Shown: positions 14,560 to 32,559 of the stretch, piece by piece | Numbering within the stretch: position 1 is the first letter of the stretch | Layout: every line of letters begins with the position of its first letter | Assembly (NCBI GenBank): GCA_965205505.1 | Contig: CBDBHB010000009.1 | Span: 2,016,001 to 2,080,000, forward strand | Source: Acidobacteriota bacterium | GTDB taxonomy: Bacteria; Acidobacteriota; UBA890; WLXD01 | Direction of reading: 5' to 3' | DNA: 64,000 nucleotides | Translations under genes and position numbers: made by a program | The notes under the pieces: model-generated | Database searches by the model: none | Told to the model about the DNA's origin: nothing | What the model saw: only the letters and a program-made list of their open reading frames with translations

Positions 14560-14720
14560 GAAGCTACGGCTCGGTCGGCACGGGCCGTTTCAGTTGGACC
14601 TAGCGAACCAGCCGGGATTCTACTCGCATGGATGCGCGAGCAAAACTGGAAGGTTCACCAGGTAGCCTCAACGGTCACTGTTTGGACTCGACCCCGCCTA
14701 GTGCTCCTGATCATAAGTGC
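14560..14720 (+). other. Possible serine-recombinase C-terminal / att scar
   Basis: GTAGCCTCAA at 14662; the frame reads LLAWMREQNWKVHQVASTVTVW, similar to the remnant at 32340-32559. Confidence 0.3.
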
Positions 14721-14887
14721 GGTGACGTTTGTGGCGCGCGCGACCGAGGCGAATTGTAGGAGCGGCGACGAGGGCGATGCTGGGTGTATCGTCGAGGCGC
14801 CGCGACGCCCAAGGTGGCCGGTCCCGCGGCCACCCGGAGGGCAGGGGCGGTCTCCCTGTACAGTACGTAGAACGTCGTTCGTGCCGC

Positions 14888-16582
14888 CTATACGCCCTCG
14901 GCCTTGCTGCAACGACGAGGATCGCCGCAGGCAGTCATCGTGCCCGAGCCCGATTCGAAGTGAATTCCTTCGAAGGAACCGTGGTAGAGACTCCAGGGAT
15001 TGATGACATCGAAGTCGATGCCCCGCTGCTCCACGGCCTCGCGGACATGCGCATCATAGTTCTTCTCGATCGTGATGCCGCGGTCGCCGACCGGTCCCCC
15101 GTAGCGCGGACGATTCACCGATTCCTCGATCGGCATCGCGAAGTCCATGATGTTGACGGCGTTCTGGAGCATGCACTGGGAGAGGCTCCGGCTCGGCGAC
15201 CCGCCGGCGAGAAAAGGTGCCCCGTCCTTGAACACGATCATGCCGCCGGGCCCCACGAGCCCGCGCTCGCCCGGACTGCCACCATAAATTCGCAACGAGC
15301 ACAGGTTGACGCCATTCACCCACAGACCGGTTTCGAAAGGAGCCTGGTTAGATGAGTGCACCAGGCAGGCGACGTTTCCTTGTTCGTCCGCCACGGTCAC
15401 GGCGCACGTGTCTTCGGGCAGGGCGCCGAACGACGTGTCTGACGCTAGCTGCCCGGTCTGCAGCTGCTCGAGTCGACGGCGCGCCAGCTCCTCCGGGTCG
15501 AGGTCGCTCGTATCCTGCCTGCGGTAATCGCCTTCGACGATCGTCAAGCTGCGGATCATCTGGTACATGGTCTCCGGCGATTCCGTCGGCGGGCCCTGCG
15601 CCGGGATATCCAGCAACTCCAGAACGTCCAGGGTCTCGGTGATCACCGGCAGGGAGTAGCCGTTGAAGGTGCGGTAGGCGCGCGGCAGCGCGCGAACCTC
15701 GAACCCCCGGTAGGTGCTCGAAGCCACTTCTGCGGTCGTCGCCTCGTAGCGCTCCATATCCTGGCGGGTGACGTTGCGGCCGCCTGCCTGGGAGATTCGG
15801 CAGAACTCCTCGGCAAAGTTGCCCCGGTAGAAGTATTCGTTACCTCGTTCGGCGAGCTGCTCGAGCGTATCCGCGGCCTCCACCTGGTAGAGCATCTCGC
15901 CCGGTTGAGGAATGGCACTGTTGGGCATGTAGATCCTCAGTCCCGCGTCGGAGCGGCCGATCTTCTCGGACTCCATGAAGATCTCTCCCCAGAGGAACGG
16001 ATGGGTCTCGAACCCCTCGCGAGCGTAACGGATGGCCGGGGCCATGAGCTCTTTCTTCGACTTCGTACCGAAACGCGAGAGTGATTCCTCGAAGCCGGCC
16101 CAGAACCCTGGCACACCGACTCCCCCCCATGTATCGGGAGTGCCGTCTGCTTCCTCGGCTCCAAGCGGTACATTGGCACTGCCGTCGACATACATCGTCT
16201 CGCCGCTCGCAGCTTCGTAGTACGTCAACGTCAAGTAGCCAGTAACACCCACCAGGTGCGGCTGGATGACGGTCTGCGTGATGGCGACGCAGAGCGCTGC
16301 GTCGCAGGCGTTGCCGCCGGACTTCAGGACATTGACGGCTTCGCGCGTGGCCAGCGGATGAGAGGTGATCGCCATGCCCGTCCTGCTCTGCGCGGGCGTC
16401 TTGCGACCGAACTGAGCTTCAGCGATGAGCTCCTTCCGCTTCTGGTCACCGATTTCGTATACGCCCTGCAGGGAGGCCGGATCCCGTCTGACGTTTGATT
16501 TCGAGAGACCAAACTCGCCGACTCCCGCTACGGCAGCGCCGGCGAACGCGTTCCTGAGAAAAGCTCTTCGATCGTGCTGCAT
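14888..16582 (-). CDS. ggt: Gamma-glutamyltransferase family protein with Tat signal
   Basis: DRRAFL Tat motif, GGNACDAA, GVPG, AIRYAREGF, DTCAVTVAD nucleophile, CGDPRR. Confidence 0.88.
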   Translation of the reverse strand: MQHDRRAFLRNAFAGAAVAGVGEFGLSKSNVRRDPASLQGVYEIGDQKRKELIAEAQFGRKTPAQSRTGMAITSHPLATREAVNVLKSGGNACDAALCVAITQTVIQPHLVGVTGYLTLTYYEAASGETMYVDGSANVPLGAEEADGTPDTWGGVGVPGFWAGFEESLSRFGTKSKKELMAPAIRYAREGFETHPFLWGEIFMESEKIGRSDAGLRIYMPNSAIPQPGEMLYQVEAADTLEQLAERGNEYFYRGNFAEEFCRISQAGGRNVTRQDMERYEATTAEVASSTYRGFEVRALPRAYRTFNGYSLPVITETLDVLELLDIPAQGPPTESPETMYQMIRSLTIVEGDYRRQDTSDLDPEELARRRLEQLQTGQLASDTSFGALPEDTCAVTVADEQGNVACLVHSSNQAPFETGLWVNGVNLCSLRIYGGSPGERGLVGPGGMIVFKDGAPFLAGGSPSRSLSQCMLQNAVNIMDFAMPIEESVNRPRYGGPVGDRGITIEKNYDAHVREAVEQRGIDFDVINPWSLYHGSFEGIHFESGSGTMTACGDPRRCSKAEGV

Positions 16583-16748
16583 CAGCTTTATCCCTCCGGG
16601 CTGGAGATCCTCACTCCGATAGCGCTGATCGAGGTCGGTTGTCTCAGCGTCCCATCAGCATTTCAGGCGGTACTTCCTCTCAACGACTTGGAGAAAGCCC
16701 GCAGCCAATGCTGCACCGACCCCACCGAGCACGAGCGACAAGAACGTC

Positions 16749-16783
16749 TGAAGCTTGTGGCCGCGGGAGGCGAGATCCAACGG
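16749..16783 (-). promoter_or_regulatory. Dispersed promoter-like repeat copy 3
   Basis: TGAAGCTTG...GCGAGATCCAACGG; minus strand reads TTGGAT-N17-CAAGCT, pointing toward ggt. Confidence 0.55.
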
Positions 16784-16836
16784 GTGGAACCTGACAGCGC
16801 TCCGGCGCGGTTCACGACTACGTGGACACCGACAGT

Positions 16837-18291
16837 CTATCGTCGCGCGTCCTCGCGTGAGGCGCCGAGTCGGGTCGCAAATTTCGTTTTGCGCCACCCC
16901 GAATCACCTACCGCGTTTCGAGCCCGTATACGACATTTGTATCGTGTATCCGCGGTGAGCTCGTCGAGGATCACGCCCTCGACGTTCGCATAGGCTCGCG
17001 CGACGGTGCTCCATTTATCGCCGCTCGGCTTGCATTGCACAGGGTGGAGCACCAGTGGCCTGTAACAGATGATCGTTGCGTATCGTGGTGGCGAAATGGG
17101 TCCGGATGCCAGGCGCGACGACGAGACGATGTTTGCCCATCGTGGAGGAGGAGCAACGCCGCAGACGGGCCGATTTCGCCGCCATCCTGCGGACAGATGG
17201 GCAGTTGCGGGCGATATCGGCGTTGCGCCTCGTCGACGATGCCCACTGCATCGCCTTCCTCGCCGCGCCTTGATCTCACCCGCAAATCCCATCTGCGATA
17301 TGCAACGATCATCTGTTACAGGCCACTGGTTCTTGCTGCTTTCGCGAGCCCAGCGTTCGAGAAGTTCGACGCGCCGCCGAAGGTCGCGACTGAGATCGCC
17401 GATCGATGTGATGTCGGTCAGGGTCATTGGTAGAGAGAACGCTGCCTTGTTGGTCTTCGGGTCCATCAGCTCGAGCAGGCCCGTGAGTGTGTGGCTTCCG
17501 GCTCCGCGGCGCAGGCCATCTTGACGCGTATAGTTCGAGTTTACGGCCTCGACACGGCTCTCTCTCGTGTTCGCCTCGTCTGCACGGTTCTCGAACGAGA
17601 CCCCGGCGGCGCCGCCGTAGTCGGCGACATTCACCACGACGATGTAGTCGGCGATCTGGCGTGTGCGCACCAAGCCGAAGGCGGGCGAGTCGCGTAGTGC
17701 CTTGGCAACCTGCTGCTGGACGACCGCCAGCTCGCCTCGCACCTGCATCAACGTTGACTCCATCGAGGCATTCCGGTCGGTGACGGTCGTGTCCATCGGA
17801 CCGACGAAGACGCGCGGCGCGTTGATACGCTCCGCGAGATCATCCGGCGGGTCTGCTACCTCCCGGAGCTGCACGATCTCCTTGCTCATGTCGCGGCCCG
17901 CCTGATGCGCGAGGATCGTCTGCTCCCAGCAGGTCTCGTAGTCCCCGACGCCGAAGGAGGCGATGCCGGCCATGAAGTAGACATCGGGCACCCCGGGCTG
18001 GCGCTCGTCCGCGGCCAGGAACGCCTCAAGGGCGTCCTTCTCGTCGCCCATCTGGCCGTGCGCCAGGCCCTTCAAGAAGTGTGCCGTCCACAGCGTATCG
18101 TCCGCCTTCAACACATCTTCGAGCAGGTCGAGCGCGTACGCCGGCTCACCCTGATCGATGTACTCTTGGGCCCGCTTGAGTTGCTGCTGTAGCTCTCGTC
18201 CGTCCCCGTCCTGGCGTGCCTGTGCGGGCGCAGCGACGACTAGCGCAACCAGCAGGACGCGGAACAAGGGGATATGGCCACGGTTCCGCAT
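16837..18291 (-). CDS. Secreted TPR protein; native end near 17330, ORF extended through the MITE
   Basis: Shares WTAHFLKG, YETCWEQTILAHQAGR and ERWARE with 1305-2273; homology stops at the MITE. Confidence 0.78.
   Translation of the reverse strand: MRNRGHIPLFRVLLVALVVAAPAQARQDGDGRELQQQLKRAQEYIDQGEPAYALDLLEDVLKADDTLWTAHFLKGLAHGQMGDEKDALEAFLAADERQPGVPDVYFMAGIASFGVGDYETCWEQTILAHQAGRDMSKEIVQLREVADPPDDLAERINAPRVFVGPMDTTVTDRNASMESTLMQVRGELAVVQQQVAKALRDSPAFGLVRTRQIADYIVVVNVADYGGAAGVSFENRADEANTRESRVEAVNSNYTRQDGLRRGAGSHTLTGLLELMDPKTNKAAFSLPMTLTDITSIGDLSRDLRRRVELLERWARESSKNQWPVTDDRCISQMGFAGEIKARRGRRCSGHRRRGATPISPATAHLSAGWRRNRPVCGVAPPPRWANIVSSSRLASGPISPPRYATIICYRPLVLHPVQCKPSGDKWSTVARAYANVEGVILDELTADTRYKCRIRARNAVGDSGWRKTKFATRLGASREDARR
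17051..17330. mobile_element. 280-bp MITE with 35-bp terminal inverted repeats
   Basis: 17051-17085 (ACCAGTGGCCTGTAACAGATGATCGTTGCGTATCG) is the reverse complement of 17296-17330 with 1 mismatch; no transposase inside. Confidence 0.85.
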
Positions 18292-18429
18292 CGTCGAGCC
18301 CCTTTGTCTGCGGGCAACCCTTCCCGGGGCCCCCAACGGCGACTAGCCAGAGAACCCTCTCACGATGCCTGCCACAACATCAACGGGACAAGGGTGGTCG
18401 GTGTTCTCGGGAGCACGCAACGCGATTCG

Positions 18430-18501
18430 GTAGCCGAAATCACCCTGAGTTGGAATCGGATCATCCAGGAAGAACGGGCTCGGCTCGCGGGACTCGGCTG
18501 A
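18430..18501 (+). repeat. att-scar-like repeat (VAEITLSWNRI)
   Basis: GTAGCCGAAATCACCCTGAGTTGGAATCGGAT aligns with 24044-24115; 3' end aligns with 26504-26571. Confidence 0.65.
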
Positions 18502-18532
18502 AGACGCTACAGATCCAATAGCACGAGCTGCT

Positions 18533-19393
18533 TCAGCTCGTCGGCTTGGTGAACTTCAGCAGGTAGCGATCGGTGTCGTAGCGGCCGTCATAGGTGCCCT
18601 CCTCGAAGCCGGAGGTGCTACGGTCGTCCGCTGGGTTTGCCAGCATGGCGGAGCGCCCCGACAGCTCAAAGCCCCCGGCGGTGAACTCGTCGATTACGGT
18701 CTGCTCGTTGAGGCGATGCGTCTCGGGGTCCCATCCCGGCTTGTCGCTGGCTGCCTCGACGATGCCCACGACTCCACCGGGCTTTAGGGCTCGGTGCATC
18801 TCGGCCACCGCCTCGGGGCGCGAGGGGCCCGGGACGGTCCCGAGGTCGTGGTAGTTGCGCACCGCGACCATCACGTCGACGCTGCCCGATTTCATATCCG
18901 TAAGCTTGTCGATTAGCTCGACGTTGCTCAGACCATGGTCCTGGATACGCTGCTTCAAGCCTTCCCTGGTGGAGTAGTCGGTGTCTAGACCAAAGAAACC
19001 CAGGACACTCAACACGTGCCCGTCAGCACCCATCAGGCGTGACATCAAGTGAGTGTTGTAACCCTCGGCAGGCCATAGATCCGCAACCGTCATGCCCGGC
19101 TGCATGCCCAGCCACTGGTAGACATCGATCGCTTTGCGGTCACTATCCTCGGTGCGCTCGGCATCGGGGCGCGCAGGGTCATCGAGAACGGACCGATCTA
19201 GCTGCGTCACGATCGAATCTTGTGGCAACGCCGAGGCAGTCTCTTCCGAGGCTATTGGCTCGGTTTCCGGGCTACAGGCGATCATCGTTGCCGCCACTCC
19301 CACGAGCAGCGAGAACACGTGCGTATCTCCGACTACGCCGCGACGGTTACCCTTGAACAGATTCGCTTGTCTCACCGTTGATCTCCTTTTCAC
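18533..19393 (-). CDS. Class I SAM-dependent methyltransferase-like exported protein
   Basis: MQPGMTVADL, RNYHD, ALKPGG, AGFEL, NPADD; start uncertain. Confidence 0.8.
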   Translation of the reverse strand: MKRRSTVRQANLFKGNRRGVVGDTHVFSLLVGVAATMIACSPETEPIASEETASALPQDSIVTQLDRSVLDDPARPDAERTEDSDRKAIDVYQWLGMQPGMTVADLWPAEGYNTHLMSRLMGADGHVLSVLGFFGLDTDYSTREGLKQRIQDHGLSNVELIDKLTDMKSGSVDVMVAVRNYHDLGTVPGPSRPEAVAEMHRALKPGGVVGIVEAASDKPGWDPETHRLNEQTVIDEFTAGGFELSGRSAMLANPADDRSTSGFEEGTYDGRYDTDRYLLKFTKPTS

Positions 19394-19462
19394 CGGGGAA
19401 GGTCACTAACTTCGACTCTGTTGAGTCAAGGGCGATACATCACCATGGCGCCACCACAGGGA

Positions 19463-19509
19463 TGGGTGAGCGCGTGAAGCCTATCGCCGGAGCGTGCGAG
19501 ATCCAACGG
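19463..19509 (-). promoter_or_regulatory. Dispersed promoter-like repeat copy 4
   Basis: Minus strand reads CCGTTGGAT-N17-TAGGCT-TCACGCGCTCACCC upstream of the methyltransferase. Confidence 0.7.
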
Positions 19510-21361: not shown

Positions 21362-21419
21362 GATCCGCGCGTAGGAGGCACCATGTGTTACATGGCGGCA
21401 TTCGTCGACCAGGCGTACT

Positions 21420-21550
21420 CGTCGTGACGGCTTGGGGCATCCCGGCGGCGGCGCTTGCTCAGACTGGAATCTACGAGCTCGTCTCCAATTGGCCGAATGT
21501 TCCCTCCGGAATGTTCTTCGGGTCAGGTGAGGGTTGGCCAGATCGGAACC
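21420..21550 (+). pseudogene. N-terminal fragment of an exported (NHL-like) protein
   Basis: AAALAQTGIYELVSNWPNVP signal-cleavage region, then the frame is lost. Confidence 0.3.
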
Positions 21551-21595
21551 TCTTCATTCTAAAGAAGTACCGAGGGAGGGACGACTGAACGATAG

Positions 21596-23966: not shown

Positions 23967-24010
23967 GGCCTATCATCAGAGTCACGAGATCCAACGGAGA
24001 GGGCAGGGGA
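23967..24010 (-). promoter_or_regulatory. Dispersed promoter-like repeat copy 5
   Basis: TTGGAT-N16-TAGGCC; shares the GGAGAGGGCAGGG flank with copy 7. Confidence 0.6.
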
Positions 24011-24043
24011 TACCCTAGGGCGCAGCACCCCAGAAGGGAGGAA

Positions 24044-24115
24044 GTAGCCCCAATCACCCCGAGTTGGAACCGGATTCAGGAAGAACTCAGGAGCCTGGAT
24101 CGGTTCTCCGCCTGA
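24044..24115 (+). repeat. att-scar-like repeat (VAPITPSWNRI)
   Basis: GTAGCCCCAATCACCCCGAGTTGGAACCGGAT; homologous to 18430. Confidence 0.65.
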
Positions 24116-24184: not shown

Positions 24185-24259
24185 TAGGCGTAGCGGAGTG
24201 GGCCTCCCCCGATTTCCCGGACACCTTTGGAAGTCCGATAATGGGCTCGGAGGTGAAGC

Positions 24260-24553
24260 ATGGGGTCACGACGGCGGTACAGTCGCGAGTTCAAGATTGA
24301 GGCAGTGAGGATGGTGACGCAGCTGGGCCATCCGGTGTCTGAGGTGGCCCGGGATCTGGGTGTTGGCCGCGGCATGTTGACCAAGTGGCGCAAACAGCTC
24401 CAGGAGCAGGGGGTCACGGCGTTTCCGGGCGCGGGGAAGATGCCCGACCAGGACCTGGACGGGCAACAGCTACGGCGGGACGTGCGGCGAGTACGGCAGG
24501 AGCGCGACATTCTAAAAAAAGCGTTGGCGATCTTCTCGGAACGCCCGCGATGA
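24260..24553 (+). CDS. IS3 transposase OrfA
   Basis: RRYSREFKIEAV helix-turn-helix, ERDILKKA; A7G -1 frameshift site at 24514-24521. Confidence 0.92.
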   Translation: MGSRRRYSREFKIEAVRMVTQLGHPVSEVARDLGVGRGMLTKWRKQLQEQGVTAFPGAGKMPDQDLDGQQLRRDVRRVRQERDILKKALAIFSERPR

Positions 24554-25545
24554 AGTACCCGATCATCAAGCAACTGTCCGGCAAGTTCCCGGTGCGGCGG
24601 TTGTGCAAGATGCTCGAGGTGTCTCACGGCGGTTACTACGAGTGGCGAGGAAGGGGGCCGAGCCCGAGAGCGCGAGAAGATCGCCGTCTACGTGTGCAGA
24701 TCAGAGCTGCATTCCGAGAGAGCCGCGACCGTTACGGAAGTCCGCGCATCCACAAGCAACTTCGGCAACGAGGGATCCGCTGCTCTCGCAAGCGGGTAGC
24801 TCGGCTGATGCGCCAGGAAGGACTTCGAGCTCGCCAACCCCGTCGGTTCCGGGTGACAACACGGCCCACACCTGGCCGGTCAGCGGCGCCCAACGTGCTG
24901 GCACGGCGCTTCACGGTGGATGCCGTGGACAGCGTCTGGGTGGGCGACCTGACATACCTGTGGACGCAGGAAGGATGGCTATACCTGGCCGTGCTGATGG
25001 ATCTGTGCTCGCGACGGATCATCGGCTGGGCGGTGAGCGAGACGATGACGGACGATTTGACGCTGGCGGTCCTGGATCAGGCCTTGGAGCAACGCCGTCC
25101 CGGTTCCGGAGTGCTCCATCACAGCGACCGCGACAGCCAGTACAGCAGCGACGATTACCTAGACAAGCTGCGTGACCGTGGCTTCACCATCAGCATGAGC
25201 AGGAAAGGAGACTGCTGGGATAACGCGCCGATGGAGAGTTTCTTCTCTACCCTGAAGTTCCAACTCGGTGGCTGCTTCAGTTCCCGGGCGGCGGCCCGAG
25301 CCGAGTTGTTCCACTACATCGAAGTGTTCTACAACCGGGCTCGCATGCACACCTGGATCGGAGACCAGAGTCCGGCTCAGTTCGAGGCGGCAATGCGGCG
25401 GCCAGGCCAGAGCGGCCAATCAGCTGTGGAAGCTGACGCGCCCGTGGAAATCGACTCCCGATTTCCACCGTCGCTTGGACAACGCTCCGCGTTGCCAACA
25501 GCTCCCACAGCCGCTAATACGACTACGACAATGGATCTTAACTAA
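24550..25545 (+). CDS. IS3 transposase OrfB (DDE)
   Basis: YGSPRI, WVGDLTY, HHSDRDSQY, CWDNAPMESFF. Confidence 0.92.
   Translation: MKYPIIKQLSGKFPVRRLCKMLEVSHGGYYEWRGRGPSPRAREDRRLRVQIRAAFRESRDRYGSPRIHKQLRQRGIRCSRKRVARLMRQEGLRARQPRRFRVTTRPTPGRSAAPNVLARRFTVDAVDSVWVGDLTYLWTQEGWLYLAVLMDLCSRRIIGWAVSETMTDDLTLAVLDQALEQRRPGSGVLHHSDRDSQYSSDDYLDKLRDRGFTISMSRKGDCWDNAPMESFFSTLKFQLGGCFSSRAAARAELFHYIEVFYNRARMHTWIGDQSPAQFEAAMRRPGQSGQSAVEADAPVEIDSRFPPSLGQRSALPTAPTAANTTTTMDLN
25423..25511. other. Nested-hairpin (three-way junction) structured element at the IS3 3' end
   Basis: Outer stem 25423-25435/25499-25511; inner stems 25444-25453/25459-25468 and 25475-25485/25489-25498. Confidence 0.65.
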
Positions 25546-25674
25546 GTGTCCGGGAAAGCGGGGCAAGGTCAAAGTGGCGACGTGCCCGTTTTCGCGTCAG
25601 GAACACCGATGACCTAGTCTTGTGATGTTGTCGTCTCGTTTGCCCGTCCAGCCAAGTTCGAGGGAGGCCACACT

Positions 25675-26184
25675 GTGAGGAGCCTGATGCCAAAACGCCT
25701 GACCGTGTTGCAGGTAGCGCTGATCCTGATCGGCTCGGCCGCAAGCGCTCACGCCCAAACCGAGTCGCGGGATCCGTTGATCGGCACCTGGACACTCAAC
25801 GCCGAGAAGTCGGTCTTTGGCGGCAACGCGCCTCCGCCGACCAGCCTGACGAGGACGTTCGACTACACCAAAGACGGGCTGATGCTCGTGACGCTCGAGA
25901 CCGTGAACGCCCGTGGCCGCTCATTTCTGCACTGGTACTTGGGCTTCGACGGCAAGGAGTACCCGGAGTATTCAAGGGAATCCGGGGCGAAGCCGACATA
26001 CTGGCTCTCGGCTAAGGTGATCGATCCCTACACGAAGGAGGTGATAGATCGCGTTGCGGACCAAGACGAGCCATTCCTGATGATCACCTTTGCCGTCTCG
26101 AAAGACGGTGAGACCATGACGATGACGTACAAGGACATGGATGGTACGCCCGGCAACGTTGTCGTGTACGACAAGGTGTTCTAG
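25675..26184 (+). CDS. Secreted hypothetical protein (lipocalin-like beta fold possible)
   Basis: Signal peptide, DPLIGTWTLNAEKS, VSKDG, VYDK. Confidence 0.7.
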   Translation: MRSLMPKRLTVLQVALILIGSAASAHAQTESRDPLIGTWTLNAEKSVFGGNAPPPTSLTRTFDYTKDGLMLVTLETVNARGRSFLHWYLGFDGKEYPEYSRESGAKPTYWLSAKVIDPYTKEVIDRVADQDEPFLMITFAVSKDGETMTMTYKDMDGTPGNVVVYDKVF

Positions 26185-26204
26185 GTAGCCTCAATGCGGT
26201 CCCG

Positions 26205-26394
26205 CGCCATGGACGGCTGCGATGTGTGGATGGTTCAGGGCTGCGGCAGCGCGAGCCTCCTGCTCGAAACGAGCGAGGCGCTCGGGGTCAGAGGCGAACT
26301 CGGCGGGCAGCACCTTGATGGCCACCTTGCGGCCCAGGCGCGTGTCCTGCGCCAGGTACACCTCGCCCATGCCGCCAGCACCGAGCTGCTCGGT
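26205..26394 (-). pseudogene. Ser/Thr kinase N-terminal fragment lacking its start codon
   Basis: Near-identical to about 36216-36400 ([26 protein letters not shown]). Confidence 0.85.
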
Positions 26395-26414
26395 GGCGCT
26401 ACCAGGGAGGGTTA

Positions 26415-26470
26415 GGTGAGCGCGTGAAGCGTATCGTCAGAGACGGCGAGATCCAACGGAGAGGGCAGGG
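26415..26470 (-). promoter_or_regulatory. Dispersed promoter-like repeat copy 7
   Basis: TTGGAT-N17-TACGCT-TCACGCGCTCACC upstream of the kinase fragment. Confidence 0.7.
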
Positions 26471-26503
26471 AAGGCGCAGGTGGGGCGTTGCGAAAAAGAG
26501 GTA

Positions 26504-26571
26504 GTAGCCCCAATGGCGAGGATGTTGAACACCACATGCAGTACGTGGCGCGCCTCGCGAGGGTCGGCTGA
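26504..26571 (+). repeat. att-scar-like repeat
   Basis: GTAGCCCCAAT core; CTCGCGAGGGTCGGCTGA end resembles 18484-18501. Confidence 0.5.
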
Positions 26572-26576
26572 GCGTC

Positions 26577-26765
26577 CTACGGGTCCGTCGGCACGAGCCG
26601 GTTTAGCTCCTCGAACCAGTTGGTGACCAGCATCACGTTCCCGACGCCGCTCAGCGATTGGGTGGCGGCTTCCAGCATCACGAAACGCTGCCCGTCCCCC
26701 GTCACATCGAAGTCCGAGGCACCGTTGGCGTATCCGTTCAAACCGCCCAGGAAGTCCCCCTCTGA
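26577..26765 (-). pseudogene. C-terminal fragment of a kinase-PD40 protein
   Basis: DFDVTGDGQRFVM...VTNWFEELNRLVPTDP stop; matches the 38770-38912 and 59407 ends. Confidence 0.8.
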
Positions 26766-27026
26766 CAAAGTAGCCCCAAGGGGATTGACCGGTTGCAATG
26801 CCGATTGGCGGTGGTGAGTAGCGGGTGGTTCGAGGCGGGTACTAGGGGCGCTTGACGCGCGTGGCGTCCACCTCGCCTCCGTCGCTCGGTTGCGTTGTAC
26901 CGCCGCTCGATCGTCGCTACGCTCGGTCGCATGCAGGAACGCACAGGTATCGCCACGCCGATCGGCCGGTCGAAGCCCTTGGACCGAGGCGGGCGTTGCT
27001 GCGGCCGTGATCAGGCGCGGGGCAAC

Positions 27027-27206
27027 GAGTTGATCCTGGGACTGCCTTCGGGAACAGTTTCGTTGCACCGCGCGCACGACGAGTGGGCGCGCGCGTTCGA
27101 ACACGAGGCACAGCGCATCGAGTCGGCGATCGGTCCGTACATCCTCGATGTCCGCCACATCGGGAGTACGGCGATCAAGGGCGTGCCCGCCAAGCCCATT
27201 CTCGAC
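27027..27206 (+). pseudogene. GrpB-family nucleotidyltransferase N-terminal fragment
   Basis: WARAFEHEAQRI...HIGSTAIKGVPAKPILD signature. Confidence 0.8.
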
Positions 27207-28100
27207 CGCCTACGCTACGTGATGGAGGCCCACGTGATGCCGACGCTGGGCGAGGTGCCCGTGGACCGGCTGACGGCGAACCGCATCCGGCGGTGGCATG
27301 AAGCCTTGGCCGATAAACCGGCCCACGTGCGGACCTCGAAGCACAGCCGGAAGCGCCAGGTACGCCACGCCAAGACCGCTGATGAGAAGCGCGCCCGCAA
27401 GGTCACCGCGAATCGGTCGCTGACGGCGCTGAAGGCGGCGCTACACCGGCGATGGCTCGGCAACCGCCGTGTGGTCGGGCCGTGGTCGGAGGTAGCGCCG
27501 TTCCGCGACGTGGACCGAAGCAGGGACCGCTACCTCGACACCGATGAAGCGCAGCGGCTCGTGAACGCGTGTGAGCCGGACTTTCGCGCCCTGGTGCAGG
27601 GAGCGGTCTACACGGGGCAGCGATATGGCGAGCTGGCGCGGCTGCGCGTCGCGGACGTGAACCTCGACGCCTGCGCCGTCGCGGTGCGCGAATCGAAGAG
27701 TGGAAAGCCGCGCTACGTGTTCCTGAACGACGAGGCGCTGGCGTTCTTCGAGGCGCAGGCTGCCGGCTGCGGTGGAGACGAGACGCTGTTCCGGCGAGCC
27801 GACGGCGAGCCCTGGGGCCATGGGCACCAACACAAGCGCATGAAGGCCGCCTGCGAGCGGGCCGGGATCGACCCACCCATCGGGTTCCACGGGTTTCGGC
27901 ACGGCTACGCCTCGTCCTATCTCATGAACGGTGGCGGTCTGCCGGACCTGGCAAAGCAGTTGGGGCACACGAGCACCCGGATGGTGGAAGAACACTACGG
28001 CCATCTCGCCGACGCCTGGCGCGCGGAGCGGGCGCGGCAGTTCGCGCCGACCCTAGGAGTGAAGCCGGGCAAGGTGCGGAGGATGCGAGGGCGCAGGTAA
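27207..28100 (+). CDS. Tyrosine recombinase/integrase, N-terminally truncated and fused in frame to the GrpB fragment (ORF 26895-28100)
   Basis: TGQRYGEL, KSGK, HGFRH, LGH and HYGH catalytic residues. Confidence 0.88.
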   Translation, partial: RLRYVMEAHVMPTLGEVPVDRLTANRIRRWHEALADKPAHVRTSKHSRKRQVRHAKTADEKRARKVTANRSLTALKAALHRRWLGNRRVVGPWSEVAPFRDVDRSRDRYLDTDEAQRLVNACEPDFRALVQGAVYTGQRYGELARLRVADVNLDACAVAVRESKSGKPRYVFLNDEALAFFEAQAAGCGGDETLFRRADGEPWGHGHQHKRMKAACERAGIDPPIGFHGFRHGYASSYLMNGGGLPDLAKQLGHTSTRMVEEHYGHLADAWRAERARQFAPTLGVKPGKVRRMRGRR

Positions 28101-28109
28101 AACGGGGAT

Positions 28110-28898
28110 GTGACCATGCACAGATCGGCCACCGCCGCCGCCCGGCAGCGCAAGGTGCACAAGCTGGCGGACGATCTAGAGCGCGCGCTGCGGGCGCTCG
28201 AAGATGCCCACGAGCGCGGCGACGAGCGCGATGTTCTCGCCCGCTTCGAAGCCGTGATCGATGAGCTGGGCGCGGGTCTCGTGTGGGCGGCGATGCTCGC
28301 GGACATGCCGTGGCGACTGAGCGCTGCTCGCCGGGCCGCGCTAGCGATTTACGCACGCGACCAGCACCATGGCGTCGCCTGGATGGCGAAGCTAGACCTC
28401 GCACTCACTGCGCTAATCGAAGTGGTGGGCGCGTGGTCGGAACCGTGGCGGGGGCGGATCGGCTCCGGCCCCGGCAGCGGCAAGCCGAGGGACGAAGCAG
28501 GCGAGATCACGGAGATCATCCCTGTCGAGCAGCCGATCGAGGACCTGCTGGTATGGCTGCGGCAGGAAGCACTCGCGCGGGCAATTGCCGCCTTGGACAC
28601 CTACATCCCGCTCGCCGTCACCCGGGCCGTGCGAGAGTCCGACTGGCCCAAGGACCGCAGGCCCACCGTCGAGGATGACGAAATCGGGGCCGTCCGCCAG
28701 AACGAGGCCCTGGCCGCCGTCTACGAGGCCACCACGACTGTCCGGCAGCGCGAGGTGCTAGAGGCTATGGAGCGCCACGCCGAAGATGCCGACGACGGCA
28801 ACGAGATCCGATGCCGCGCCGCCGCCGACCTCGACATGTCCCGCGCCAATCTCCGCAACATCATCAAGCGCATCATCGACGGCCGCGAAAAGAAGTAG
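28110..28898 (+). CDS. Hypothetical protein with C-terminal HTH
   Basis: TVRQREVL...AAADLDMSRANLRNIIKRI. Confidence 0.55.
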   Translation: MTMHRSATAAARQRKVHKLADDLERALRALEDAHERGDERDVLARFEAVIDELGAGLVWAAMLADMPWRLSAARRAALAIYARDQHHGVAWMAKLDLALTALIEVVGAWSEPWRGRIGSGPGSGKPRDEAGEITEIIPVEQPIEDLLVWLRQEALARAIAALDTYIPLAVTRAVRESDWPKDRRPTVEDDEIGAVRQNEALAAVYEATTTVRQREVLEAMERHAEDADDGNEIRCRAAADLDMSRANLRNIIKRIIDGREKK

Positions 28899-28991
28899 GC
28901 GGCGCCACGTTACGCCGCATCCTCGAATTCGCATAGGTACGCGTAGGCCGGACGACTACGCAACCCTATTGCGAGTGGAGGTGACGCGGCG

Positions 28992-29189
28992 ATGAAGCAG
29001 GTCGACCGAGTTTTCCTGAGCATCAACACAGGGCCAACGCCCCGCGACGCGGTGCCGGTGGTCGCCACCGAGGACCCGGCGATCGTCGATGCTGCGCTCT
29101 TGGCCGTCTGCCGGCGGCTCGGACGCGGGCTCGACGACCCGGACCCTGACCCGCCGCCCGGCGAGGAGGTGCGTCGTGGGCGCGTCTGA
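28992..29189 (+). CDS. Small hypothetical protein of the element
   Basis: GGAGGT RBS; overlaps the next gene. Confidence 0.55.
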   Translation: MKQVDRVFLSINTGPTPRDAVPVVATEDPAIVDAALLAVCRRLGRGLDDPDPDPPPGEEVRRGRV

Positions 29190-29379
29190 CGGACGTGCCG
29201 TCGGCCAGGTTGCTGTTGGGCTCCGCGACGGCGCGAAACTGCTCGGGCTGGGAACGAACGCGCTCTACACGGCGTTGCGCGAGGGTCACGGCCCGAGGAC
29301 TTTCCGCGTGGGTCGTCGCCACCTTGTGCGTGTCGCAGAGCTTGAGCGCTGGGCTCGCGAGCTGGAGGCACAGGGGTAG
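29176..29379 (+). CDS. Excisionase/AlpA-like HTH protein
   Basis: GAKLLGLGTNALY...PRTFRVGRRHLVRVAELERW; GAGGAGG RBS. Confidence 0.75.
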   Translation: MGASDGRAVGQVAVGLRDGAKLLGLGTNALYTALREGHGPRTFRVGRRHLVRVAELERWARELEAQG

Positions 29380-29530
29380 CCCACCTGGACGGAACAACTC
29401 TTGGAGGGGTCCGACAGTTATCGCACCGAACCAAGTCTGTAGCTTCCGACGGAGGTCGCAATGCCGCGTAACAAGAATAACCCCGACCGGTGGGCCGCCG
29501 GCCGGGGCAATTTGTCTCCGCGAACTCGTG

Positions 29531-29881
29531 ATGCATTCGATCTCAACGTATCACAGCCGGTTCTACGCGGAGATGAAAGTGATGCCACAGGTAGCGAGGG
29601 AGGTAGCCCAGCGGGTCCGCAAGCTGGTGGAGGAGCACGGGTTCAGACAGCTGATGCTTGCGTTGAACCTGAACGCCATGGGCGACCCCGAGAGTCTGCG
29701 CAGGGCAGCCATACTCCTCGCCATGGTGAGAGCCCCAGAGATGAGCAGTTACGCGCAGACTTGGCCCACGCCGAGATGCGAATCCGGGGAGTCTCCTCCG
29801 GACCCCCGGACAGACTGGATACAGACCGGAACCAGACCGGAAACCGACCCGACTCCCGAAGGGAAACGGACTGGAGGGTGA
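29531..29881 (+). CDS. Hypothetical protein
   Basis: ATG at 29531; GTGA overlap with the next ORF. Confidence 0.45.
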   Translation: MHSISTYHSRFYAEMKVMPQVAREVAQRVRKLVEEHGFRQLMLALNLNAMGDPESLRRAAILLAMVRAPEMSSYAQTWPTPRCESGESPPDPRTDWIQTGTRPETDPTPEGKRTGG

Positions 29882-30669
29882 ATCTCGCTGCTGACGACTT
29901 GGGAGGGATTCTCGATCTTCACCGAGGCAACCTCGATGAAGTTGTTCTGGACGCCGTTAAGCGAAACGAACGCGAGCTGGCGCTTGTCGGGTCGGGGGAC
30001 CCGCTTGCAACTGACAGGCGTTACCAGAGTTCAGCTTGGAGGCTGGCCTCGGAGCTTCGGGGGCACCCGCTCTTTGCCGATCACGAGTCTTACGAAGCCG
30101 TGGCGAAGGTCGACGCAGTACTCGCGGGGCACGGCGGCTGGGACGCTGTCTCGCAGCACGACGTGATGGTATGCGGACACGAGGTGTCGCACCTGGAGAG
30201 CGACCCGAGGGAGGACTTCATCTCTTGCTGGTCTGAGATCAAGACTCCGTTGTCTCCCGCATATCACCCCGAGATAGCCCTGCCTCCTGCGAACGAGTTC
30301 CCCTTATCTTCCGATCGGTGGCAGGCCGACTCCGACGCGTGCTACCGCCTGGCGATTTCGATTTGCTACTGGTTCGCGCAGCTCTTGGGCAACGAGGGCC
30401 GGTTCTTCATGTCGTGCCGGATGCTGGCGGGTCTTGTCGGGAAGCCGCACACGACAGCAGCCTCGTATCTTCGCAGGGCTGTTGCAGAGGGGGCGCTTGA
30501 ATTGCGGCGAAAGGGCGTCCGTGGGAGGACCTCACGCTACAGGTTCAGATTCGCGGTCGTCGCCTTTGCTGACGAGTCCCCTGCCAGCGTCGAACATGAC
30601 GGTAGCGGTGCAGTACCACAGGACCAGCCCGTACCTGCCACGTCGGTGTCCGTTAGAGGGGTTGCGTAA
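29878..30669 (+). CDS. Putative replication/DNA-binding protein with C-terminal winged HTH
   Basis: FFMSCRMLAGLVGKPHTTAASYLRRAV...RTSRYRF. Confidence 0.5.
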   Translation: MNLAADDLGGILDLHRGNLDEVVLDAVKRNERELALVGSGDPLATDRRYQSSAWRLASELRGHPLFADHESYEAVAKVDAVLAGHGGWDAVSQHDVMVCGHEVSHLESDPREDFISCWSEIKTPLSPAYHPEIALPPANEFPLSSDRWQADSDACYRLAISICYWFAQLLGNEGRFFMSCRMLAGLVGKPHTTAASYLRRAVAEGALELRRKGVRGRTSRYRFRFAVVAFADESPASVEHDGSGAVPQDQPVPATSVSVRGVA

Positions 30670-30692
30670 AACTTTTACGATGGAGTGCGAAG

Positions 30693-30923
30693 ATGACGAT
30701 CAAGACGAAAATTATGGTGAAGGCGACGCGTGCCCAGGTAGCGGAGGAGAGCGAGGGGAGATGCGCCCTTGCTCACTCCGAGCACGGGCGGTGCGCTAGG
30801 AGTGTGAAGTCGGAGGATCACCACATCATCCGGCGGGGCGAGGGGGGTACCGACGAGCTTGAGAACCGCGTCCGGGTCTGCCCTGACCACCACCGGCAAA
30901 TCCATCAGCAGCAGGCACCCTGA
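30693..30923 (+). CDS. HNH endonuclease domain
   Basis: C...C...HHIIRRGEGGTDELEN...CPDHH. Confidence 0.8.
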   Translation: MTIKTKIMVKATRAQVAEESEGRCALAHSEHGRCARSVKSEDHHIIRRGEGGTDELENRVRVCPDHHRQIHQQQAP

Positions 30924-30977
30924 CTATATCGTGTCCATTATTCTACCGGTGGGCGGCGGACCAAAGCTAAAGGCGCG

Positions 30978-31751
30978 ATGGGAGCCGAGGGGGTGTTTCT
31001 ATATGCCGAGGACATCCAAGCCCAGGGTGTCGACCACCTGGAGGCGGTCGTTGCGTCCGTCGGCCGGTCGAAGTTGTCGAAAGTGGTACAGGAGATCGCG
31101 TCGTCCGAGTATGACGTCTGGCGTCTGTGGCCTGACGTGAAGAAGGAGTGGACCGAGGAGGCGATCCGGCTTGACAAGGAGTTGACTAAACTTGTCGAGG
31201 CGGACCAGTCGCTGATGTGGGCGCTCGCGATGGTCGCGTTTGATCTCCAGAGACGGAACCTCTGGTCGCTGTTTGACTACGATTCTCTTGCCGACTACAC
31301 GCGCTCCAAGAAGCTGAAGCCGGCCACTCTGATTAGCTACGCGAGGGCCGAGAGGATCTTGCGGGAAGTCGTACCGGAGGACCGACGGGCTGAAGCGCGC
31401 AATATCGGCGTCTCGGTCTGGCACCTGAAGGGAAAGGATATCCGACGCCTCGGGATGCCGATCGTGGAGACGATGCTCCAACTCTTGCAGCAAGGAGTCC
31501 CGGACACGTCCATCATCGCCATGATCGAGGAGCAGGTTCCGATCGGCGAGACCGCGACCGGCAAGCCACGGTACGAAGTGACGCTGAACCTGAAGTCGGT
31601 GCGCTTCGTCATCGGCGTTAACGCACACAACCGCGAGGCGGCTGAGGAGAAGGCGATGAAGCAGTTCCTCGCCTACAAAGCGCTGGAGCGCTACAAGATG
31701 ATCGATGACCCAGAGGCGGTGTTGAAGGGCTCGGCCGGGGACGACACGTAG
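30978..31751 (+). CDS. Hypothetical phage-like protein, in frame with the upstream HNH
   Basis: Long ORF; same frame as 30693 across one TGA. Confidence 0.6.
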   Translation: MGAEGVFLYAEDIQAQGVDHLEAVVASVGRSKLSKVVQEIASSEYDVWRLWPDVKKEWTEEAIRLDKELTKLVEADQSLMWALAMVAFDLQRRNLWSLFDYDSLADYTRSKKLKPATLISYARAERILREVVPEDRRAEARNIGVSVWHLKGKDIRRLGMPIVETMLQLLQQGVPDTSIIAMIEEQVPIGETATGKPRYEVTLNLKSVRFVIGVNAHNREAAEEKAMKQFLAYKALERYKMIDDPEAVLKGSAGDDT

Positions 31752-32264
31752 GTGGTCGGGGAGGGGTTGTTCGGCACGGCGTCGGTCGCGGGCGAGGGGG
31801 CGGCTGACGAGCCGACGCTCGGCGACCTGGGCGCGAAGGTGGACCGCCTGCAGGTTGAGATGAAGGAGGCGATGAAGATCCTCCACCGCATTGACCGGCG
31901 TGGGGCGGTGACGAGGCAGAAGAGGATGCAGATGCCCTCGGGCTGGAAGGCGAGGTACGACTACGTGGACGAGTGGAACGCGGCGGCGGCCGCGTCCTTG
32001 GCCGATGTGCCGCGCGTCGAAAAGTTGACTCCGGCGCGTGCTCAGCTGCTCAAGAAGCGCGAGGTCGAGGAGGCGTTCGACTGGCCGGCGATCACGGCCG
32101 CCGTGCGCCTCCTGTCGCCGGGGTTCCTGTCGTCGTGGTCGGGGTTCGGCTTCGACTGGATCGTCTCTGACACGCAGGAGGGGAAGGTGGAGTCGTACGT
32201 GCGACTCATCGAAGGGAGGTACGAGCGTAAGCCTGGGGAGCGCGGACCTGGGCGGATACTTTGA
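31752..32264 (+). CDS. Phage replication-protein C-terminal-like domain
   Basis: EWN...KLTPARAQLL...FDWIV...RLIEGRY pattern. Confidence 0.5.
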   Translation: MVGEGLFGTASVAGEGAADEPTLGDLGAKVDRLQVEMKEAMKILHRIDRRGAVTRQKRMQMPSGWKARYDYVDEWNAAAAASLADVPRVEKLTPARAQLLKKREVEEAFDWPAITAAVRLLSPGFLSSWSGFGFDWIVSDTQEGKVESYVRLIEGRYERKPGERGPGRIL

Positions 32265-32339
32265 GAAAGAGGAGGAGTGAGATGCTGACGGGGGAGGAGA
32301 TCAAGGTGGCGCGGACGGCGACCAGCTCGCCGGTACTTG

Positions 32340-32559
32340 GAAACGCCTTGAAAACCCTGCCAGGCGGGCGTTTCAGCAGATCGTATTCCCCGAGGGGGTG
32401 CCGGTGAGAGCAGGCATCTGTTTGAAACCGACTAACTCCCCAATCTTCAGCACGTTACGACCGATCTCGACAGGCGAATCTCATAAGGTAGCCTTTCTGT
32501 CAGCGAATTTGAAACCGTTCACCGGGGCATTGATGGATCTCGTCCGAGCCGTCGCGTGA
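32340..32559 (+). pseudogene. C-terminal remnant of a large serine recombinase
   Basis: RFQQIVFPEGV...SPIFSTLRPISTGESHKVA; similarity recalled, not searched. Confidence 0.5.

Follow-up and report, generated by a model that had tools for sequence, protein, structure and literature searches.

Organization of the locus

Within the window, by which we mean the whole 64,000-nucleotide stretch of DNA analysed here, a 10-nt core word, GTAGCCYCAA, recurs among pieces of STK-TolB kinase paralogs and their spacers, a duplicated segment, an IS3-family insertion sequence, a 5'-truncated tyrosine integrase gene and four ORFs of unassigned function (Table 1). KatG, gamma-glutamyltransferase and other ordinary metabolic genes, as read from the translations, also lie between the cores, an observation that we count against the interpretation favored below.

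Table 1. Features of the core-bearing region in window coordinates, with the basis of each assignment
Feature	Position	Strand	Basis or remark
Remnant: end of spacer element X and last codons of an STK-TolB paralog	14540..14605	-	Likeness to 26545-26620 and 18480-18545
X-type copy: core GTAGCCTCAA, then CGGTCACTGTTTGGAC	14662..14697	+	Cut off by the 152-bp multicopy repeat 14698-14849
Diverged X copy (X'), core variant GGTAGCCGAAA	18429..18545	+	Runs into the final ~8 codons of an STK-TolB paralog, in antisense
Block A (left arm of kinase 5'-UTR type), spacer, core 24044, X'-type right arm	23975..24100	+	
IS3-family insertion sequence	24199..25571	+	Multicopy, with 10 or more copies at ≥99%
604-bp segment with a 169-aa ORF (25675-26184)	25582..26184	+	Duplicated at C9:2090499-2091102
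Core-only copy GTAGCCTCAATG	26185..26196	+	Junction of duplicated segment and kinase pseudogene
Ser/Thr kinase paralog N-terminus, pseudogene fragment	26191..26395	-	36 nt missing, the start codon among them
Complete spacer unit: Block A, spacer, core 26504, 73-nt X element	26434..26576	+	
C-terminal 63 codons of an STK-TolB paralog (...NWFEELNRLVPTDP*), truncated at the core	26577..26768	-	tblastn homology starts at residue 131, base 26768
Decayed, displaced tRNA-Glu 3' fragment, antisense (att scar neighboring the integrase)	26769..26800	+	16/17 to the tRNA-Glu(UUC) end
GrpB N-terminal fragment, in frame with the integrase remnant	27057..27205	+	The genome's only GrpB match
Tyrosine integrase, 5'-truncated, lacking ~150 N-terminal residues	27206..28100	+	Pfam PF00589 and phrog_1
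Four ORFs (262, 402, 257 and 170 aa), function unassigned	28110..32264	+	No Pfam or PHROG match
Conserved arm adjoining the core	32328..32486	+	98.2% over 166 nt to G004:C7
Decayed tRNA-Glu 3' fragment: GGTAGCC, 13 replaced bases, ATTTGAAACCGT-TCACCGG	32487..32526	+	Identity with G004 ends inside the core

All five exact copies listed in the original prediction are present on the forward strand (14662, 24044, 26185, 26504 and 26770), and its estimate of less than one chance occurrence per window holds, with 0.12 copies expected upon shuffling and five or more reached in 0 of 100 shuffles. The two variants that it added fared less evenly: with two (GTAGCCGAAA, 18430) and three (GTAGCCTTTC, 32488) mismatches they are not among the matches to the core at one mismatch or fewer (8 versus 3.36 expected), but both are, judged by their flanks, real relatives of it, the former having 46 nt at 82.6% in common with the DNA downstream of 24044. 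Across the whole genome the 10-mer shows no enrichment (25 copies versus 41 for the reversed control word). Of its copies, seven fall within C9:2,030,662-2,106,686 in a single orientation, the seventh being the 3' end of a tRNA-Glu gene, and the 16 found outside this cluster and the repeat family show no additional likeness to tRNA.

The proposed placement of the cores at gene or fragment boundaries is borne out at 26185, the first base after the 604-bp segment (99.2% identical to its duplicate, the identity stopping at 26184, just before the core), and at 26770, where the paralog homology of the TolB-like fragment begins at 26768; it holds loosely at 14662, 36 nt from the multicopy repeat, and fails at 24044 and 26504, where the core sits inside a larger repeated unit. 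At 26185 the likeness to tRNA ends at 12 nt, the paralog homology of the adjoining kinase pseudogene fades ~30 nt before the core, and the ORF of the duplicated segment has no match in Pfam or PHROGs. Compared across copies, the core is a mosaic breakpoint, with one left arm joined to different right arms and vice versa.

The core corresponds to the 3' end of tRNA-Glu(UUC)

Reverse-complemented, the core is the 3' end of a tRNA-Glu(UUC) gene located on the minus strand at C9:c[2106676-2106751], 26.7 kb past the window end. The gene ends in ...TTGGGGCTACC (also given as ...CCCGTTGGGGCTACC), and GTAGCCCCAA is the reverse complement of its last bases, which comprise the end of the T-stem, the 3' acceptor strand, the discriminator and the first C. 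The search for a host tRNA ending in the core has thus returned an intact gene on the same replicon, and the suggested resemblance of the reverse strand at 26770 to a tRNA 3' arm is confirmed by a match to this gene's end at 16 of 17 positions (GTAGCCCCAAgGGGATT). The window cores and a further copy at C9:2090426 are all co-oriented with the tRNA gene and lie downstream of its 3' end, the fragment at 26770 included. Over the 90 kb up to the tRNA, the latter is the sole match to the terminal 18-mer with two mismatches or fewer; it extends over 17 nt ungapped or ~30 nt with gaps, and its extension score against the tRNA reaches the 99th percentile.

The 26770 site lies 435 nt upstream of the truncated tyrosine integrase gene, which matches Pfam PF00589 (E = 7.8e-29) and the phrog_1 integrase profile (E = 7.5e-42). 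The gene is a remnant, since its full-length relatives (frames of 454-476 aa) align to it only from residue 143-168 onward. The interval 26787-27205 carries the GrpB fragment rather than an integrase arm, so that the tRNA-like fragment and the integrase are no longer in their original contact. It is the sole integrase gene across the 76 kb separating 14662 from the tRNA, and the only one of the genome's 35 integrase matches to fall within C9:2,030,000-2,107,000.

The integrase family is itself tied to tRNA-Glu: at 10 of 13 loci examined, a relative lies ~0.6 kb from a tRNA-Glu 3' fragment of 35-44 nt. The fragment is antisense to the integrase and 0.57-0.66 kb upstream of its matched part at seven of the ten loci from the genome collection, one of the seven being just a 16-nt T-arm match, and ARAGORN calls a tRNA gene at one of these ten. 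A Geothrix locus among the matches displays the full signature, with a tRNA-Glu gene, a 43/44 repeat 7.2 kb away and the integrase beside the repeat. All three relatives examined also carry a fragment: in G011 an exact 43-nt repeat lies 16.1 kb from that genome's own tRNA-Glu(UUC), so that two loci combine gene and repeat; the fragment of the congener G004 is identical at 43 of 43 positions to the tRNA-Glu end of the source genome; and that of G020 measures 40 nt. In this family the integrase gene begins ~0.25 kb from the fragment and reads away from it. The geometry of the window, with an integrase pointing away from a series of repeats, had brought an integron cassette array to mind; we dropped that reading because the core is a tRNA end and the integrase relatives adjoin tRNA-Glu fragments.

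The original prediction had instead invoked a large serine recombinase carrying the attP core in its 3' end. The genome encodes three large serine recombinase frames of 614 aa (C7:438780, C7:477325 and C9:278337), either at a great distance or on a different contig, and all 25 core copies fall outside them; no serine recombinase (Resolvase and Recombinase domains) lies at or near the cores, and the gene actually present is the tyrosine integrase. The supposed recombinase-like tail at 32398-32559 has no match in Pfam or PHROGs, and the VAP...SWN mini-frames are not recombinase tails and lack a start codon and any Pfam match.

The second scar, at 32487, is recognized by its flank: window positions 32328-32493 (166 nt) match the sequence beside the 43-nt tRNA-Glu fragment in G004:C7 at 98.2% identity, and the identity ends 7 nt into the core. 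The site retains these 7 nt plus a 20-nt T-arm piece, and its local score of 13 against the tRNA is reached by 0.2% of 4000 random 45-mers. Neither this fragment nor that at 26770 has the 43-44 nt typical of the family. On the strength of these comparisons we regard both as genuine decayed att junctions of integrative DNA, and the expectation of att-like scars in the region is thereby upheld for at least two sites.

Together the two junctions may bound a dead element of 5.7 kb, whose putative ends have only GTAGCC in common. The four ORFs between the integrase and 32264, which have no second copy in the genome and none in the loci examined in relatives, may represent its cargo. The arm 32328-32486 also has a diverged, collinear homologue immediately past the genuine tRNA-Glu in G007, a gene for which 20 kb of sequence yield no distal fragment; the arm would thus be either the P' arm of the element or native tRNA-Glu downstream flank, and in the latter case the limits of the element would shift.

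The kinase-array spacers probably derive from a single junction

The four remaining spacer sites (14662, 18430, 24044 and 26504) differ from these scars. They share long flanking homology with one another and with other genomic copies, which identifies them as paralogs; they are copies of one repeated STK-TolB array spacer and have probably spread by duplication rather than by separate integrations. The spacer copies start with up to 14/14 bases of the tRNA end, and no significant likeness of X to the tRNA is seen past ~14-28 nt: the 5' two-thirds of X score against tRNA-Glu within the range of shuffled sequences, Rfam yields no match in 14000-33000 at E values up to 10, and neither covariance model nor full-length homology marks X as a tRNA gene or pseudogene.

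The left arms point back to the tRNA locus. A 70-nt stretch that follows the genuine tRNA-Glu in the congener G003 aligns to eight spacer left arms with scores of 9-22, the best match being the unit at 26504 (22) and the copy at 24044 scoring 14; twelve other left arms score between -17 and +3, and that of the 14662 copy is not of the Block A type (-5). In G003 itself, Block A and a decayed kinase start follow the tRNA-Glu, and two of its three X copies lie 5-9 kb downstream of that gene in the same orientation. In G007 a different tRNA-Glu flank is followed by non-syntenic DNA; both genomes are rearranged here, and the relatives offer no clean empty site for the window DNA.

A model for the origin of the cores

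We consider it probable that the cores other than 26185 comprise tRNA-Glu att scars at 26770 and 32487 and one older junction that was multiplied together with kinase genes. The tyrosine integrase family would recombine within a 43-44-nt block of tRNA-Glu that begins in the anticodon loop and reaches the gene's 3' end. Integration would restore the tRNA and displace its former 3' piece, co-oriented with the gene, to the distal end of the insert, a general mechanism described for tDNA islands in the Islander paper (PMC4383910); 26770 and 32487 would be such displaced pieces, since decayed. An older junction would have joined the tRNA-Glu 3' end and a downstream kinase leader (Block A) into the spacer between tandem STK-TolB kinase genes, and this spacer would have been multiplied together with those genes and afterwards broken by insertions and deletions. 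Several observations speak against this reading: the ends of the putative element have only GTAGCC in common, GrpB sequence separates the fragment at 26770 from the integrase, the 32328-32486 arm may be native flank, the tRNA likeness of X is short, spacer copies occur at a distance from tRNA-Glu and from any integrase, a single integrase gene is present in 76 kb, and no relative offers an empty site.

A possible though less favored alternative accepts only 26770 and 32487 as att scars and derives the spacers from a plain tandem duplication whose two ends fell within tRNA-Glu and shortly beyond a kinase gene; the single new junction so formed (X plus core) would then have spread through the kinase array by unequal crossing-over. 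This alternative fits the homology of the spacer left arm to the G003 flank, the constant placement of X ~8 nt past the STK-TolB stop codon and the location of spacers in kinase arrays remote from any integrase; in addition, clear tRNA identity in X spans 13-14 nt, less than the 43-44 nt left by the integrase family. A breakpoint in the 3' part of a tRNA is, however, expected of an att crossover, whereas a random duplication would hit that spot by coincidence, and X contains a CCACG-N7-CGTGG inverted repeat at about the position of the anticodon arm, although this last reading is interpretive.

That X is instead a working element at kinase 3' ends (a small ORF, an RNA, or a binding site for a protein or recombinase), with the core under selection, appears improbable. 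Most differences among ~16 copies do fall at third positions of the forward frame ...SPNGxDxEHHAEYVARLARxG*, with a constant stop codon position, and X is retained in three congeners; start codons and genuine long ORFs are, however, absent from all copies (the lone 241-aa frame is an antisense artefact), several carry frameshifts, Pfam and Rfam yield no match, and the central hairpin shows uncompensated changes without covariation.

We likewise give little credence to a model in which all seven sites are separate integrations or rearrangements and 14.6-32.5 kb is a tandem island array at tRNA-Glu. The co-orientation of every site downstream of the tRNA, the breakpoint behavior of the core and the core-bearing junctions inside kinase genes (26185 and 26768) would suit it; against it stand the paralogy of four sites, the housekeeping-type genes that fill the intervals and the single integrase in 76 kb, where the Islander catalogue (PMC4383910) takes a fragment and an integrase per member as its criterion for a tandem array. 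The idea that repeated integrations through one core built the mosaic is retained in part, for the core as a breakpoint and for at least two att junctions, and finds no support at the four spacers, which are paralogous copies of one junction. Coincidental likeness to tRNA-Glu in a purely local duplication cluster would agree with the lack of genome-wide enrichment and with E-values of 1-18 for single 12-17-nt matches, but is extremely improbable given the family's link to tRNA-Glu (10/13 loci), the flank common to 32487 and the perfect 43-nt fragment of G004, and the homology of a genuine tRNA flank in G003 to the spacer left arm.

Relation to known systems

Scars of tRNA ends left by mobile DNA are an already known kind of genomic scar. 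The Islander catalogue (PMC4383910) describes islands in tRNA genes as a tDNA plus a displaced 3' tDNA fragment, with tyrosine integrases, and the preferred reading, att scars plus one multiplied junction, matches this plan in its intact tRNA, its co-oriented downstream 3' fragments and the tyrosine integrase between them; the identity block in the relatives, which starts in the anticodon loop, corresponds to the "anticodon centered" class of that catalogue. Unlike the islands described there, the fragments have decayed to 7-17 contiguous bases, the integrase is missing ~150 N-terminal residues, replaced DNA separates it from the fragment, and the tRNA is 58-64 kb away. Among its 3919 islands, the catalogue counts 125 arrays of at least two members and four of at least three; several co-oriented copies of the tRNA end in a row downstream of one tRNA gene recall such arrays, but here at least seven cores share one integrase, and four of them are paralogous copies of one junction.

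The same paper names Mx8 and SSV as systems whose integrase genes extend across attP, which makes them the nearest known relatives of the attP-in-recombinase idea; a coding-like frame likewise crosses the core in X copies, but these frames have no homology to integrases or recombinases. Salmonella genomic island 1 (PMC2297512) illustrates how integrative elements use secondary attachment sites and integrate in tandem, and the core-bearing junctions in kinase genes (26185 and 26768) could stem from comparable recombination at secondary sites; unlike in that system, neither an active integrase nor alternative junctions are seen here. The contigs of four public runs, which miss rare forms, contain no alternative junctions or circles at the cores. 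With its integrase truncated and its fragments decayed, the scar system is inert. The IS3-family insertion is a later arrival outside that system, and in one contig of run X19, 24201 is linked to 25589 across 12 letters.

The core and the 3′ end of tRNA-Glu

The word GTAGCCYCAA, hereafter the core, occurs five times in the window (14662, 24044, 26185, 26504 and 26770), always on the plus strand, where shuffling predicts 0.12 copies per window and yields five or more in 0 of 100 shuffles; the original prediction, which had reported these same-strand copies against a chance expectation below one, is borne out. Allowing up to one mismatch gives eight matches versus 3.36 expected, and the two positions previously listed as variants, 18430 and 32488, are absent from these eight, although 18430 does belong to the spacer family described below and the arm at 32487 corresponds to an att flank in the congeneric genome G004. 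Across the whole 5.98-Mb genome G000, in which the window spans C9:2016001-2080000, the core is found 25 times, versus 41 times for the reversed control word, and is therefore no genome-wide repeat; seven of the 25 copies lie in a single orientation within C9:2,030,662-2,106,686.

Among the 56 tRNA genes called by ARAGORN in the genome is a tRNA-Glu(UUC) at C9:c[2106676-2106751], ending in ...GGGTTCAAATCCCGTTGGGGCTACC. The last bases of this gene, reverse-complemented, give the core, and the gene itself is the seventh regional copy. The proposed check for a host tRNA ending in GGGGCTACC(A) is thus positive, and the central guess of att-like remnants of a tRNA 3′ end was right. Because purA, tRNA-Lys and tRNA-Glu follow one another on the minus strand, the 3′ end of tRNA-Glu faces the window, 26.7 kb past its right end. 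Sixteen other genomic copies of the core lie in unrelated DNA with no added tRNA likeness (extension scores -7 to +1). An integron attC array was dropped as an explanation once the core proved to be a tRNA end and integrase relatives were seen to adjoin tRNA-Glu fragments; a Shine-Dalgarno spacer ahead of small genes is at odds with the absence of a consistent start codon downstream; and other same-strand 10-mer pairs, 9-16 kb apart elsewhere in the genome, share no flanks and are put down to chance. The odd recurring word is explained without a new system: what is present is of a well-known kind and has decayed, and its sole unusual feature is a tRNA-junction remnant multiplied as the spacer of a kinase array, and the DNA downstream of tRNA-Glu is marked as a plasticity zone in the genus.

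A tyrosine integrase family beside tRNA-Glu fragments

The enzyme encoded in the window is a tyrosine integrase and not, as first proposed, a serine recombinase, of which the genome holds three 614-aa frames, none near the window and none carrying the core. The ORF at 26895-28100 comprises a GrpB N-terminal fragment (E = 8.8e-13, the sole GrpB match in the genome) followed by a Phage_integrase domain (E = 7.8e-29), and is classed in PHROGs as an integrase (phrog_1, E = 7.5e-42). Only one of the 35 integrase matches in the genome falls within C9:2.03-2.107 Mb, that of this ORF. Relatives in three related genomes form open frames of 454-476 aa that align to the window integrase only from their own residue 143-168 on (base ~27192-27210), which means that the latter has lost about 150 residues from its N terminus, where foreign DNA is now fused to it. 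In a contig of the public run X19, ~1.07 kb of extra DNA stands between 27211 and 27203 with a 9-nt overlap, which suggests an insertion with target duplication; the same contig is without 28209-29125, and a contig of run X17 also diverges from the window at 27203.

We scanned one genome per species and obtained ten loci with integrase relatives (34-49% identity), seven of which bear a piece of tRNA-Glu 0.57-0.66 kb upstream of the matched part and antisense to the integrase. These pieces span 34-44 nt in L058, L060, L061, L062, L063 and L067, while L064 has a 16-nt T-arm match only; none was found upstream of the integrase in L065 and L066, nor in L059, whose contig extends just 605 nt upstream. 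With ARAGORN reporting a tRNA gene at just one of the ten loci, the upstream pieces are fragments rather than genes. That one locus, from Geothrix paludis (L061), displays every part of the textbook signature: its tRNA-Glu(CUC) gene and a co-oriented 43/44 repeat of its 3′ 44 nt lie 7.2 kb apart, and the integrase adjoins the repeat and reads away from it. Two further copies of the tRNA-Glu end in this locus, a 20-nt direct one (5143-5162) and an 18-nt inverted one (5308-5325), lie 30-200 nt beyond the 44-nt att repeat and could be a second scar or arm sites.

Relatives of the window's genome gave four integrase matches, of which those on G011, G004 and contig G020:C65 form the set examined and the fourth, on G020:C411, is partial. 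G011 encodes an integrase 67% identical to that of the window and, at a distance of 16.1 kb from its own tRNA-Glu(UUC), carries an exact 43-nt repeat that extends from the anticodon loop to the 3′ end; in G004 the integrase is 52% identical and its fragment matches the tRNA-Glu end of the window's own genome at 43/43 positions; and G020:C65 holds a 40-nt tRNA-Glu fragment. In the account of tDNA islands in PMC4383910, the gene is split on integration and made whole again by island DNA, and the displaced fragment is left as a marker of the far end; the paper names tyrosine-family integrases as the only integrases then known to target tDNAs. The fragments beside the integrase relatives correspond to the mechanism set out there. 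The finding defines a tyrosine integrase family that uses the anticodon-loop-to-3′-end block of tRNA-Glu, with members in records titled Geothrix, Holophagaceae, Solibacteraceae, Mesorhizobium, Ferrovibrio and others; no conserved cargo was found beside the integrase relatives.

Junction sites at 26770 and 32487

Site 26770 reads GTAGCCCCAAgGGGATT and matches the tRNA-Glu end at 16 of 17 positions; in the 90 kb up to the tRNA it is the sole match with at most two mismatches to the terminal 18-mer. The integrase remnant is found 435 nt downstream, and the relative orientation of the two is that usual for the family; we take the site as a decayed, displaced tRNA-Glu fragment, and the probability that such a match would arise by chance in the right place and orientation beside a family integrase is judged to be very small. 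The GrpB fragment occupies part of the 420 nt that separate this core from the integrase remnant, indicating that the original arm has been replaced. On the other side lies a TolB-like C-terminal fragment (26577-26768, minus strand), whose paralog homology begins within a few bases of the core.

Window 32328-32493 has a counterpart in G004: the 166 nt after that genome's perfect 43-nt fragment share 98.2% identity with it, and the match breaks off 7 nt into the core, at GGTAGCC. Past the 32487 core the window continues with 13 unrelated bases and then ATTTGAAACCGT-TCACCGG, where the tRNA has ATTTGAACCCGTGTCGCCGG; the local score against the tRNA is 13, a value attained by 0.2% of 4000 random 45-mers. 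That two genomes share an arm but continue differently beyond it, the change falling within the tRNA core, is the hallmark of an att junction. The arm at 32328-32486 could be the P′ arm of an element, in which case 26770 and 32487 would bound a dead element of 5.7 kb containing the integrase remnant and four ORFs. Alternatively, it could be the native flank of tRNA-Glu, and 32487 would then be the far end of whatever separates the arm from the tRNA; in G007, from a different genus, a diverged and collinear homologue of the arm does lie directly downstream of a genuine tRNA-Glu, with no distal tRNA-Glu fragment within 20 kb. Both relatives usable in a synteny search for an empty site, G003 and G007, are rearranged. 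We lean toward the P′ arm, because it fits the order of the window without extra events. For the four ORFs of the putative element, neither Pfam nor PHROGs gives a match, and no counterpart was found elsewhere in the genome or at the relatives' loci. The 53-aa frame at 32398-32559, previously described as a recombinase-like tail, has no family match. ARAGORN also calls an 83-nt tRNA-Val(GAC) inside the putative element, at 29152-29234, for which Rfam gives no tRNA at the gathering threshold or at E up to 10.

The original prediction further called for alternative junctions or circles at the cores. In contigs of four of the 24 public runs, compared with the window, a form of data that cannot reveal rare excision products, no joint falls at any core among the 15 listed of 48. 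Some of the listed joints, for example 18545 to 28735, rest on sides shorter than 30 letters and may come from other organisms.

Core-bearing spacers of a kinase array

Sites 26504, 24044, 18430 and 14662 are members of one repeat family, whose unit runs from one Ser/Thr-kinase paralog (STK-TolB) to the next (see the table). At E <= 0.01 the spacer core has eight matches in the window's genome, seven in G004, three in G003 and one in G002, with two faint ones in G008 and none in 16 further genomes covered by the search; alignment brought in additional, more diverged copies. In congener G003, the same spacer, then Block A and the decayed start of a kinase gene come after the genuine tRNA-Glu gene. 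Aligned to the left arms, its 70-nt tRNA-Glu flank scores 9-22 with eight spacer copies versus -17 to +3 with 12 other arms, from which it follows that the spacer copies descend from a junction between the tRNA-Glu 3′ end and a downstream kinase gene. The copies start with up to 14/14 bases of the tRNA end, and two of the three X copies in G003 lie 5-9 kb downstream of its tRNA-Glu and co-oriented with it, as in the window's genome. Remnants of further units (14540-14605) show that a kinase array formerly occupied the stretch.

The founding junction may have been an att crossover or a plain duplication breakpoint; with either event, later spread along with the kinase genes best explains the copies far from tRNA-Glu and integrases. 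The less ordinary point is that a piece of att/tRNA junction turned into the spacer of a kinase gene array and multiplied with it, which leaves att-like cores far from any integrase. The number of separate integration events originally envisaged is wrong or unproven, and the proposed VAP...SWNRIQEE mini-frames find no family match. It is also conceivable, if improbable, that the spacer between tandem STK-TolB genes mimics the tRNA-Glu attachment core and serves as a secondary site for tRNA-Glu-specific integrases, which would make every kinase junction a hot spot where DNA is inserted, deleted or exchanged in the manner of cassettes. Such a role would account for the breakpoints with a core inside kinase genes (26185 and 26768), for the small segment between cores that holds a 169-aa gene and, perhaps, for the growth of the kinase family.

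Element X has no Rfam or Pfam match, no genuine ORF and no significant tRNA homology beyond 14-28 nt. A complete tRNA-Glu pseudogene is not supported, given that limited homology and the lack of an Rfam match; a structured RNA fares no better, its consensus fold being one hairpin with no compensating changes; and the 3′ end of a long gene is dismissed, as none of the copies lies in a genuine long frame and Pfam returns nothing. Differences among the copies of X (26504-26576; L002, L038, L039, L046 and others) fall mostly at third positions of one plus-strand frame, which keeps the position of its stop codon and has no start codon. An inverted repeat, CCACG-N7-CGTGG, is also present in X, and 73 nt separate the kinase stop codon from the end of the core.

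Composition of the spacer unit and positions of repeated elements in the window
Feature	Position	Strand	Description
Spacer unit, part 1		minus	End of STK-TolB kinase paralog, ...NWFEELNRLVPTDP and stop
Spacer unit, part 2		minus	X, 73 nt, ending in TTGGGGCTAC
Spacer unit, part 3		minus	Spacer, ~45 nt
Spacer unit, part 4		minus	Block A, 5′ leader of the next kinase paralog
IS3-family element	24199-25571		At least 10 near-identical copies
152-bp repeat	14698-14849		At least 30 copies, 87-98% identity genome-wide; 36 nt from the 14662 core; looks like a MITE
~274-bp repeat	17054-17327		Second multicopy repeat; at least 30 copies, 88-99%; within long frame 16837-18336 (minus)
Tandem ~3.6-kb blocks	44260-52058		Two copies starting at 44260 and 48478 (4.2 kb apart), 94-97% identical

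Site 26185 and other features of the region

The core at 26185 is the first base past a 604-bp segment encoding a 169-aa ORF, which recurs at 99.2% at C9:2090499-2091102 with another spacer-type core 73 nt upstream; contig breaks at 26184 are consistent with two copies of this segment. The core is flanked on its other side by the pseudogene of a kinase N-terminus, whose paralog homology fades ~30 nt short of the junction, and the tRNA likeness of the site ends at 12 nt. In run X19, one contig (depth 3) links 24201 to 25589 through 12 intervening letters, so that an allele without the IS3-family element exists and the latter is a later simple insertion. With the IS3 removed, the segment of ~750 bp between the cores 24044 and 26185 looks like a cassette, but one whose tRNA likeness at 26185 goes no further than the 12 nt given above.

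The long frame 16837-18336 may be a disrupted gene, since it contains the ~274-bp repeat. An inversion linking the kinase fragment 26191-26395 to 34288-34553 was rejected, as the translation of the latter reads as a transposase tail, presumably IS6-like. The stretch 34288-34700 holds this putative C-terminal transposase fragment and, after it, an N-terminal piece of a kinase that stops early; it adds to the debris bordering the ORFan block on the right. In the G007 locus (L035), frames at 13427-14293 share 97.5-98% protein identity with sequences of the window's genome, although G007 belongs to another genus and its purA is only 76% identical; these putatively transposase-like frames may reflect a recent exchange of a mobile element.
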